Positions 32,550 through 33,102 of a DNA stretch of 64,000 bases are shown here, in pieces. Origin of the DNA: an uncultured Chlamydiales bacterium (GTDB taxonomy: Bacteria > Chlamydiota > Chlamydiia > Chlamydiales > JAAKFR01); NCBI GenBank assembly GCA_963699155.1, contig OY969414.1, forward strand, positions 1 through 64,000. Reading direction: 5' to 3'. How positions within the stretch are numbered: the stretch's first letter is position 1; the number at the start of each line of letters is the position of its first letter. A model generated the notes under the pieces. It was not told where the DNA came from and did no database searches. It saw only the letters and a list, made by a program, of their open reading frames with translations. Made by a program: the position numbers and the translations under genes.

Positions 32550-33050
32550 TCTGCGAGTCGACACGAAAGGGGCCCCGCTAAGAGACGAAGTCCGGCGGGG
32601 TATTCGTGCATGAGCAGCCCACGGCCGCAGATTGCAAAGCCAGATCGCTTCCGGAGCTGAGCGAAGCGCCCCGTCCGCAGGCAGGAGTGGCGAGGCGTTA
32701 CTCACGCAAGATATAACCTGAGATAGTTTCATTTCCTCAGGGTTTAACCAGCACCTGAAAGTGCGGGGCCGCGCGGAGCGCGGGGTCTAGTGCTTTGCAC
32801 AGACCCCCAGCGAGGAAGCGATATGGCAAAGCAAGATGCGGCTCAACGGGGACAAGGTACCTCAAAAAGCCTCCAGTGGAGGGTTTTTGATGGGTTGTCC
32901 GAGAGTTCACAAGTTTACTTGTGAACCGAGGGGAAGCAGGGGGTTGCTGACACGAAGTGACGCAACCGCCCGACACATCTATAAGCTGCCATTTAAGATC
33001 AATTGCTATGTCTTGGATAAATAATCGGTCAGGCAGGCAAACCCTCTCCA
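32550..33050 (+). other. Highly structured non-coding element (ssDNA-type or RNA fold)
   Basis: Nested inverted repeats, five c-GNA-g triloop hairpins, long-range helix 32624-32652 / 32814-32842; no credible ORF. Confidence 0.7.
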
Positions 33051-33053
33051 AAC

Positions 33054-33102
33054 ATGGGTGGGAGAGGGGTTAAAGGGGAGGGGGGGGGGAGCGCCAAGGG
33101 CG
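33054..33102. repeat. GC-rich palindromic repeat copy 2, left part (continues 34353-34368 after the IS)
   Basis: Direct repeat of 31231-31273 plus 32524-32543. Confidence 0.88.

Follow-up and report, generated by a model that had tools for sequence, protein, structure and literature searches.

In a 64,000-nucleotide stretch of an uncultured Chlamydiales bacterium (GenBank contig OY969414.1, positions 1 to 64,000; hereafter the window), some 500 non-coding nucleotides lying between two insertion sequences (ISs) are almost certainly a nest of small repeats with a roughly 250-nucleotide (nt) element, which we call the core, present once in its middle. The fold of the core is kept by compensatory changes across bacterial families, and only on the strand that starts with 5'-CTGCGAG. 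The core is apparently a widespread, multicopy structured element of environmental chlamydiae that has gone undescribed. Taken together, the sequence evidence leads us to favour, by a small measure, a joint reading in which a repeat nest surrounds a conserved, strand-specifically folded element that would work as an RNA.

One core element inside a nest of repeats

Each base of the region 32527-33102 has at least seven BLAST matches, the self-match included, across the bacterium's own 2.40-Mb genome, which is 100% complete, and the whole stretch gave 87 such matches. With module borders set at the ends of the BLAST matches, and with copies of at least 80% of the module length counted as near-full (the window copy included), this genome holds 12 near-full copies of M0, 7 of A, 49 of B, 7 of C, 21 of D, 8 of E, 6 of F and 20 of MG. 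The order G0-A-(B)-C-D-E-F-G0, in which G0 is a GC-rich palindrome with the halves MG and M0, was seen again at eight or more loci of the genome, and at least six dispersed palindromic modules are pieced together in the region. Once B and D/E are set aside, modules A and C and the start of F form one element of about 250 nt, which occupies three pieces in the window (32551-32668, 32782-32844 and 32930-32982). It starts with CTGCGAG and finishes with the consensus CCCGACATGTCTAT, a 3' end conserved in 63 copies; the rest of module F (32983-33043) is a tail that is repeated in the own genome and cannot be aligned to another family, f8.

A sequence-only reading of the same DNA had taken the region for a single module of about 500 nt flanked by direct repeats. 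That module resolves into the core and two unrelated inserted repeats (B and D/E), and the direct repeats, although they exist, do not delimit an element, being halves of a separate palindrome hit by an IS of the IS481 family. Its statement that the region holds no credible open reading frame (ORF) is borne out: none of the three local ORFs (79, 104 and 62 aa) has a Pfam match, and the minus-strand ORFs of 79 and 104 aa that cover the region run across the borders of unrelated repeat modules. We likewise found no known RNA family there. Rfam 15 at gathering score returned one tRNA and nothing else for the whole window; at E≤10 the top match in the region was RT-19, scoring 19 bits where the gathering score is 78, and no match fell below E=0.31. 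Three uninterrupted core copies from other genomes gave only spurious matches to microRNA hairpins, far under gathering score.

A fold conserved on one strand

The core fold has three domains. A 5' domain comes first, followed by a long interrupted helix whose internal loops are rich in purines and which ends in an apical hairpin; a hairpin at the 3' end completes the fold. In A2, a sequence-only MAFFT alignment of 19 copies compared with 500 shuffles, 97.5% of cells form a standard pair against 87.6±0.6% after shuffling, and both sides have changed in 27 of 49 pairs against 12.5±1.8; in neither case did any of the 500 shuffles reach as high. Moving the pairing partners by 1-3 columns lowered pairing to 31-44%. 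Helices 1-3 are paired at 97-100%, and changes on both sides were seen in 13 of the 22 pairs of helices 4-5 and in 8 of the 10 pairs of helix 7, the apical hairpin. The internal loops (a 2x2 GA/AG loop, a 3x3 A-rich loop and a single G.A) hold their position in the sister genome and in family f8, and the pairs around them covary, as in the changes from GCCGCA/UGCGGC to GCCUCA/UGAGGC and from UUGC/GCAA to UCGC/GCGA. The 29-nt helix described earlier between 32624-32652 and 32814-32842 is indeed present as an inverted repeat, 79% complementary, and its mismatches, read off the sequence, are purine-purine throughout (G.A/A.G, AAA/AAA and one G.A). The earlier suggestion to look for homologues with compensatory changes has thus been answered by covariation found across families.

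The strand of the fold can be told from its wobble pairs. Counted in the helices, G.T against A.C is 39:3 in A2 and 110:8 among 62 distinct full copies, the latter in an alignment that was fitted to the covariance model and leans towards its structure. Since a plain DNA palindrome should give equal numbers, an excess of this size marks the strand reading 5'-CTGCGAG as the folded one.

Other parts of the previously proposed structure fared unevenly. The closing helix placed between 32610 and 32985 is not supported: the partner of GAGCAGCC (32612-32619) in homologues is the CUGC at the 5' end (32551-32554), and 32985 falls within the non-conserved tail. The nested hairpin of this 5' domain carries GAA, GTAA or GCAA loops in different copies. 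Stems at 32715-32744, 32850-32900 and 32905-32926 do appear in minimum-energy folds; the first of them lies in B and shows no compensation in divergent copies. All five c-GNA-g hairpins were found where they had been reported, with the loop G at 32587, 32663, 32677, 32775 and 32954. Five such hairpins on the plus strand, next to one on the minus strand, exceed a shuffle mean of 0.75 (P(≥5)=0.0005, 2000 mononucleotide shuffles); those at 32677 and 32775 are part of insert B and not of the core.

The region also folds better than 100 dinucleotide shuffles, as had been anticipated, with 0/100 as good for each strand and parameter set. For the 507-nt stretch we obtained z values of -5.73 (RNA parameters, plus strand), -6.50 (RNA, minus), -6.61 (DNA, plus) and -6.13 (DNA, minus). 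Because z is about -6 on both strands and with both parameter sets, fold energy cannot single out a strand or DNA, and it gives no signature specific to single-stranded DNA (ssDNA); fold energy of this kind is a mark of palindromic DNA in general.

In three copies of the own genome (C1:2208497-2208618, 1229712-1229833 and 1230791-1230911), changes confined to a single arm, twice the 3' arm and once the 5' arm, have made the purine-purine loops perfectly paired. Such one-arm perfected copies fit hairpin-templated correction, and so the core hairpins also form in DNA. Since the loops persist in most copies and in the other families, the perfected helix is a mutational by-product and not a selected state.

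Distribution of the core

Our covariance model, R1, built on 19 copies that were drawn from 12 genomes and aligned with MAFFT, has 249 positions and 49 pairs. On the window copy it matches 32544-32866 with 172 bits, taking B as an insertion, and the 3' hairpin is matched separately, ending at 32982. The own genome gave 19 matches, comprising 15 full-model sense matches, one weak match and three antisense matches, the last solely at copies with a perfected long helix. In family f8, R1 found the core in 58 of 129 genomes; these gave more than 460 matches even with at most 16 candidates scored in any one genome. Across the order it matched 15 of 150 sampled genomes from about ten families. One genome of the order sample carries 11 core copies of nearly equal score, which points to a recent burst. 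By BLAST the core was found in 23 of 400 genomes in all, including 18 of 90 in family f8 and 1 of 69 in family f5, and within the own family it was confined to the own genus. Between the own family and f8, the BLAST-matched core pieces are 74-80% identical. A search with a 19-base core motif led to metagenome-assembled genomes titled Chlamydiae, Chlamydiales, Rhabdochlamydiaceae and Parachlamydiales, plus other labels, with about nine chance hits estimated in 596 Gb.

Core copies are near-identical inside a genome and patchy between genomes, and they lie in intergenic DNA among housekeeping genes. Full-text literature searches turned up no account of such a repeat in chlamydiae; to our knowledge, hardly any environmental chlamydiae are in culture, and next to nothing of their non-coding repertoire has been mapped. 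In one genome of family f8 (G152:C1:1847649-1848178), a 3' portion of the core, some 175 nt long, is repeated in tandem as three units with a period of 178; the genus of this genome is also rich in another, unrelated repeat of about 150 nt.

Head-to-head pairs and a promoter-like box

We surveyed the arrangement of core copies in a full R1 search at 40 loci, which included the best locus from each of 30 genomes. Nineteen head-to-head pairs were found, a minus copy followed by a plus copy, with spacers of 32-214 nt, together with one tandem plus-plus case and no tail-to-tail pair; nearby matches in the f8 search, read by eye, obey the same head-to-head rule. The pairs make inverted repeats of 250-400 nt, and in 10 of the 19 the inverted symmetry runs 8-72 nt past the model end, reflecting the lineage-specific 3' tail. 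The 250-nt unit itself, which starts with CTGCGAG and finishes with GACATGTCTAT, has no terminal inverted repeats, so that only pairs form inverted repeats.

Split by arm, G.T against A.C is 33:2 in minus arms, 34:2 in plus arms and 46:4 in the remaining copies. As the G.T excess is alike in minus and plus arms, each arm is read outward from the pair centre. This is our main reason for preferring RNA, since divergent transcripts carry both arms in sense and one DNA strand over the pair cannot.

A recurrent box also lies just upstream of the core. In the own genus a -10-like hexamer stands 2 nt ahead of CTGCGAG, and more widely the pattern TTT.TA[AG]AAT-GG-YY precedes CTGCGAG at a fixed distance, with 59 of 63 copies anchored, A at -9 in 40, T at -5 in 37 and G at -3 in 51. 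From its sequence and position we infer that this box acts as a promoter, and the head-to-head orientation combined with the upstream -10-like box makes us lean towards RNA. For the own genome we predict termination of such an RNA near 32889, at the D hairpin that directly follows the long helix.

Neighbouring genes and candidate partners

Among 67 ORFs flanking 30 core loci, one encodes a transposase (Mutator/IS256 type) and the remainder are ordinary genes, including operon-neighbour pairs such as V-type ATPase subunits and 2-oxoglutarate dehydrogenase components. None of these 30 loci has a TnpB or IscB ORF beside it. The TnpB zinc ribbon (PF07282) was detected in 2 of 5 carrier genomes, the own genome counted, and was absent from the own genome and from two genomes with at least 16 core copies; reverse transcriptase (PF00078) was likewise detected in 2 of 5 carriers and absent from the own genome. 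The Y1 transposase of REP-associated tyrosine transposases (RAYT; PF01797) gave no match in the own genome, with 6 of 14 control genomes positive, and was found in 1 of 5 other carriers. IS110 transposase was absent from the own genome, the sole genome searched for it. None of these candidates is consistently present, and by these gene searches the core does not fit an IS200/IS605-TnpB or IscB guide RNA (omega RNA), a retron or other ncRNA linked to reverse transcriptase, or a REP/REPIN with RAYT. The ends of both adjoining IS types, the two types compared, are unlike the core ends and therefore offer no parent IS. No clean empty site was seen in 19 genus members for the flanks of a core copy from another genus.

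Two loci depart from the usual spacing, with pair arms 1.1-1.5 kb apart around one ORF: L076 (G294:C19:14000-16650), with an ORF of 291 aa, and L077 (G444:C4:15300-18250), with one of 366 aa. The ORF within these wide pairs may be cargo, or the arms may be two independent copies. We considered an autonomous version of the core here and rejected it, since the 291-aa ORF resembles a dehydrogenase and neither ORF, judged by sequence, is transposase-like.

What the core may be

That the region harbours an undescribed non-coding, non-autonomous element depending on its fold, as the sequence-only reading proposed, is supported by the covariation and the G.T excess, and the element is repeated and apparently spreading. 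The same reading left it between a folded ssDNA module and a large non-coding RNA (ncRNA); the strand-specific fold stands, and nothing favours DNA over RNA. For the RNA function itself we put the chances at about even or a shade better. The core would be transcribed outward from the -10-like box and work as a structured RNA, the window transcript would start at about 32551 and stop at the D terminator near 32889, and the core would spread as DNA by a trans-acting route. Several observations weigh against this. The evidence for an RNA is so far all drawn from sequence. The 59 anchored copies share no conserved -35 element, and a promoter scan found no sigma-70 promoter in 32400-33200. Terminator-like hairpins follow the 3' end in 6 of 63 sense copies and 5 of 63 antisense copies, so the RNA would need some other way to end. 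No consistent target duplication surrounds the 19 pairs and no transposase partner was found for them, yet near-identity within genomes combined with a patchy spread is how mobile DNA behaves. The one-arm perfecting of loops looks like a DNA-level, hairpin-templated (quasipalindrome) process, and the larger of the two wobble counts comes from the model-fitted alignment. Finally, DNA hairpins too tolerate G.T better than any other mismatch, and strand bias alone therefore cannot tell RNA from ssDNA.

An element acting at the level of ssDNA, in which the folded DNA strand would be a structure recognised by a trans-acting HUH-type or other single-strand enzyme that copies the core to new places, or a lagging-strand priming signal, is the strongest competitor, though we consider it doubtful; it stays close to the ssDNA idea of the sequence-only reading. 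It would account for the strand-specific fold, for the sense-strand enrichment of GNA triloops and tandem G.A pairs, for mobile-like copies that are near-identical within genomes, for insertion without target duplications and for the three perfected helices, which show that the hairpins form in DNA; by our own reasoning, the outward sense of the two arms would suit lagging-strand templates flanking a central start point as well. It has no role for the upstream -10-like box, finds neither Y1/RAYT nor IS110 transposase in the own genome (and Y1 in one of five other carriers), and gains nothing from DNA-parameter folding, in which the sense strand does no better than the antisense. At least 15 chromosomal copies among housekeeping genes misfit a replication origin, and repeat B, whose loci and not those of the core were counted by hand, has no significant replichore bias (12 loci leading vs 22 lagging, ~P=0.12). 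A less probable alternative again is that these are selfish palindromic repeats of the type of miniature inverted-repeat transposable elements (MITEs), repetitive extragenic palindromes (REPs) or foldback elements, whose fold has no function and in which DNA correction from arm to arm mimics covariation. The mosaic of dispersed palindromic modules, the inverted repeats formed by the pairs and the correction visible in the perfected helices all suit it. Neutral drift or arm correction should, however, give equal G.T and A.C, and the purine-rich loops stay unpaired at the same sites across families while the flanking pairs covary; moreover, the unit is no palindrome and lacks terminal inverted repeats, target duplications were not found, and the identity between families is high for non-coding DNA at 74-80%. 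The two minus-strand ORFs across the region are what could be said for a decayed protein gene, or else the region might be a fragment of a known RNA (tmRNA, RNase P, group II intron or riboswitch). Both were ruled out as far as our searches reach, and we regard them as extremely improbable: the ORFs have no Pfam match and cross module borders, and neither the window copy nor the three uninterrupted copies match Rfam.

Returning to the RNA reading, it can be extended to a bolder form that we think unlikely, somewhat less so than the selfish-repeat account. Here the core would be a promoter-bearing, self-propagating structured RNA gene, the pair would be the copied unit, and its outward RNAs of about 250 nt would guide, or serve as scaffold for, a recombinase, nuclease or host factor encoded in trans, whose gene would have escaped notice by lying away from the core.

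Comparison with known repeats and structured RNAs

The core resembles the enterobacterial repetitive intergenic consensus (ERIC, or intergenic repeat unit, IRU) in being intergenic, multicopy, non-coding and unusually conserved between species, in folding as an imperfect hairpin with larger variants that arise from modules at discrete internal sites, and in often lying inside operons. ERIC is a single imperfect palindrome of about 127 bp. Compared by description, the core differs in its length of about 250 nt, its three domains, its lack of overall palindromy, its bias to one strand and its head-to-head pairs. BOX of Streptococcus pneumoniae and the neisserial intergenic mosaic elements (NIME) and Correia elements of Neisseria share with our region a modular A-Bn-C syntax with a middle module that also occurs in tandem, and small repeats flanked by short palindromes that attract mobile DNA; phylum, sequences and sizes differ, and B is independent and entered the core at three points. 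The structured RNA motifs of Weinberg et al. are similarly restricted to a taxon, multicopy, backed by covariation, without a protein partner and possibly mobile, but the core lies outside Rfam 15, is larger than most of them and forms head-to-head pairs. Single-strand origins and primosome sites also have an orientation-specific fold, as the core has by its G.T:A.C count of 110:8, and are rich in GNA loops and G.A pairs; unlike the origins of plasmids and phages, the core is chromosomal, has at least 15 copies, sits in a housekeeping context and has no Rep/HUH gene nearby. In several genera ISs use REPs as insertion targets, as Di Nocera et al. 2013 (PMC3733652) state in their background. Our region resembles REPs and bacterial interspersed mosaic elements (BIMEs) as a mosaic of palindromic units in which 4/4 IS481-family copies sit in the G0 centre; it differs from REPs, which are 20-40 bp long and tied to RAYT, in that the core is ten times larger and the own genome has no Y1 transposase.

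The core is abundant, with up to at least 16 copies per genome, and unusually well conserved for intergenic DNA, and its signal is among the clearest combinations of covariation and strand bias obtainable from sequence. If it acts as an RNA, it would represent a new class of large bacterial ncRNA that spreads by being copied and has no known partner; if it acts as ssDNA, it would point to an unrecognised route of single-strand mobilisation in a phylum thought poor in mobile DNA. Either way, the covariance model is ready for annotating chlamydial genomes, where the core accounts for many assembly breaks and spurious ORFs.

The inserted repeats B, D and E

Coordinates of all features are collected in Table 1. 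Repeat B has 49 near-full copies and stands alone at about 25 loci; it also forms head-to-tail tandem arrays of 9, 4 and 3 units, and it was found at three different points within A/C core copies. These solo loci, arrays and insertion points make B independent of the core. In the sister genome a B-like insert sits in the hairpin loop of module A. We considered B as an RNA and as a coding unit and rejected both: its consensus fold over 39 distinct copies is a 5-bp closing stem with short hairpins and no double changes, and the 9 x 111-nt array has one frame open throughout, whereas the period-112 arrays have none. The open frame in the nine-unit array (period 111) has 355 codons on the minus strand and is probably spurious. 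A divergent solo B lies elsewhere in the window at 12165-12277, about 70 nt from the sole tRNA gene of the window (12350-12432, minus strand).

Repeat D was scored as terminator-like on both strands by the terminator scan. It has 21 near-full copies and also occurs alone, mostly between convergent ORFs as judged from crude ORF calls. D was present in all three genus relatives searched, and none was found at the corresponding core position in the sister genome or in family f8. A progenitor copy in the own genome gained D/E between the long helix and the 3' hairpin, and several copies later gained B. In other lineages, the copies at loci L027 (G194), L037 (G362) and L045 (G090) carry an extra hairpin of about 75-80 nt at the same apical spot as B in the window, and in the three aligned copies this hairpin is unrelated to B in sequence; core copies of 320-330 nt occur at L060, L062, L069 and L070 as well. 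The apical site of the long helix tolerates or attracts insertions.

Table 1 Coordinates and properties of the features described
Feature	Position	Strand	Details
MG, left half of the left G0 palindrome	31227-31269	+	direct repeat with 33050-33092, 88%
IS481-family IS, copy 1	31274-32516	-	1243 bp; 373-aa transposase 31319-32440; 59-nt terminal inverted repeats; 7-bp target duplication
M0, right half of the left G0	32521-32543	+	direct repeat with 34346-34368, 96%; complementary to MG
-10-like hexamer TATTAT	32543-32548	+	2 nt ahead of the first base of the core
Core, 5' domain	32551-32619	+	closing helix CUGC/GCAG; nested hairpin with gacGAAgtc loop
Core, 5' arm of the long helix	32623-32668	+	contains the 5' strand of the 29-nt helix
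Repeat B, 112 nt	32669-32780	+	in the apical part of the long helix; dispersed and tandem repeat
Core, apical hairpin	32782-32808	+	GGGG..TAGTGCTNTGCAC..CCCC
Core, 3' arm of the long helix	32809-32844	+	
Repeat D, 54 nt	32851-32904		two-way terminator-like hairpin; stem 32870-32882 between an A-run and a T-run
Repeat E	32905-32929	+	perfect 9-bp hairpin; travels with D
Core, 3' hairpin domain	32930-32982	+	cacGAAgtg loop; ends ...CCCGACACATCTAT, consensus CCCGACATGTCTAT
Lineage-specific 3' tail (rest of module F)	32983-33043	+	
MG, left half of the right G0	33044-33095	+	from direct repeat and genome BLAST
IS481-family IS, copy 2	33103-34345	+	transposase 33179-34300; 7-bp duplication AAGGGCG at 33096-33102 / 34346-34352
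M0, right half of the right G0	34346-34368	+	direct repeat with the left M0
B tandem arrays (outside the window)	own genome, C1:739782-740777, 756325-756776, 2375375-2375714		
Second IS, copies (outside the window)	own genome, C1:2208700-2210085, 941503-942883, 2274383-2275750		

Flanking palindromes and insertion sequences

The flanking ISs belong to the IS481 family, as shown by their DDE domains, leucine zipper, helix-turn-helix (HTH), terminal inverted repeats and target duplications. The transposase of the right copy matches rve (2.8e-18), rve_3 (2.2e-18), LZ_Tnp_IS481 (6.7e-07) and HTH_32 (2.1e-13) in Pfam, and that of the left copy is identical. The two copies in the window are inverted relative to each other, forming a 1281-nt inverted repeat of 99% identity, and copy 1 has the target duplication GTTGGCG in the orientation of the IS. 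Across the genome there are four full IS481-family copies, and all four lie in the centre of a G0 copy; half MG alone has 33 BLAST matches in the genome, 20 of them at 80% of its length or more. Exact 7-bp duplications were found at two of the four IS copies, namely the two in the window. As both of these keep matching duplications and both G0 palindromes read the same way, the 586-bp segment between them has presumably not been flipped by recombination. The window flanks fall on separate contigs in the sister genome. The other two IS481-family copies, at C1:942951-944193 and 2207156-2208398 of the own genome, are without matching target duplications, which suggests past recombination between IS copies.

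Palindromes and hairpin tips would thus be preferred landing sites for other repeats and ISs, and the window offers a neat case of ISs and small repeats landing at the centres of palindromes and the tips of hairpins. A second IS of 1.38 kb, with a 347-aa ORF and terminal inverted repeats of about 18 nt, is present in three copies in the own genome. All three are inserted at the first bases of module F, in a target close to GGTCGCNGGGG and with duplications of about 9-10 bp, and solo ends of this IS adjoin two further core copies.

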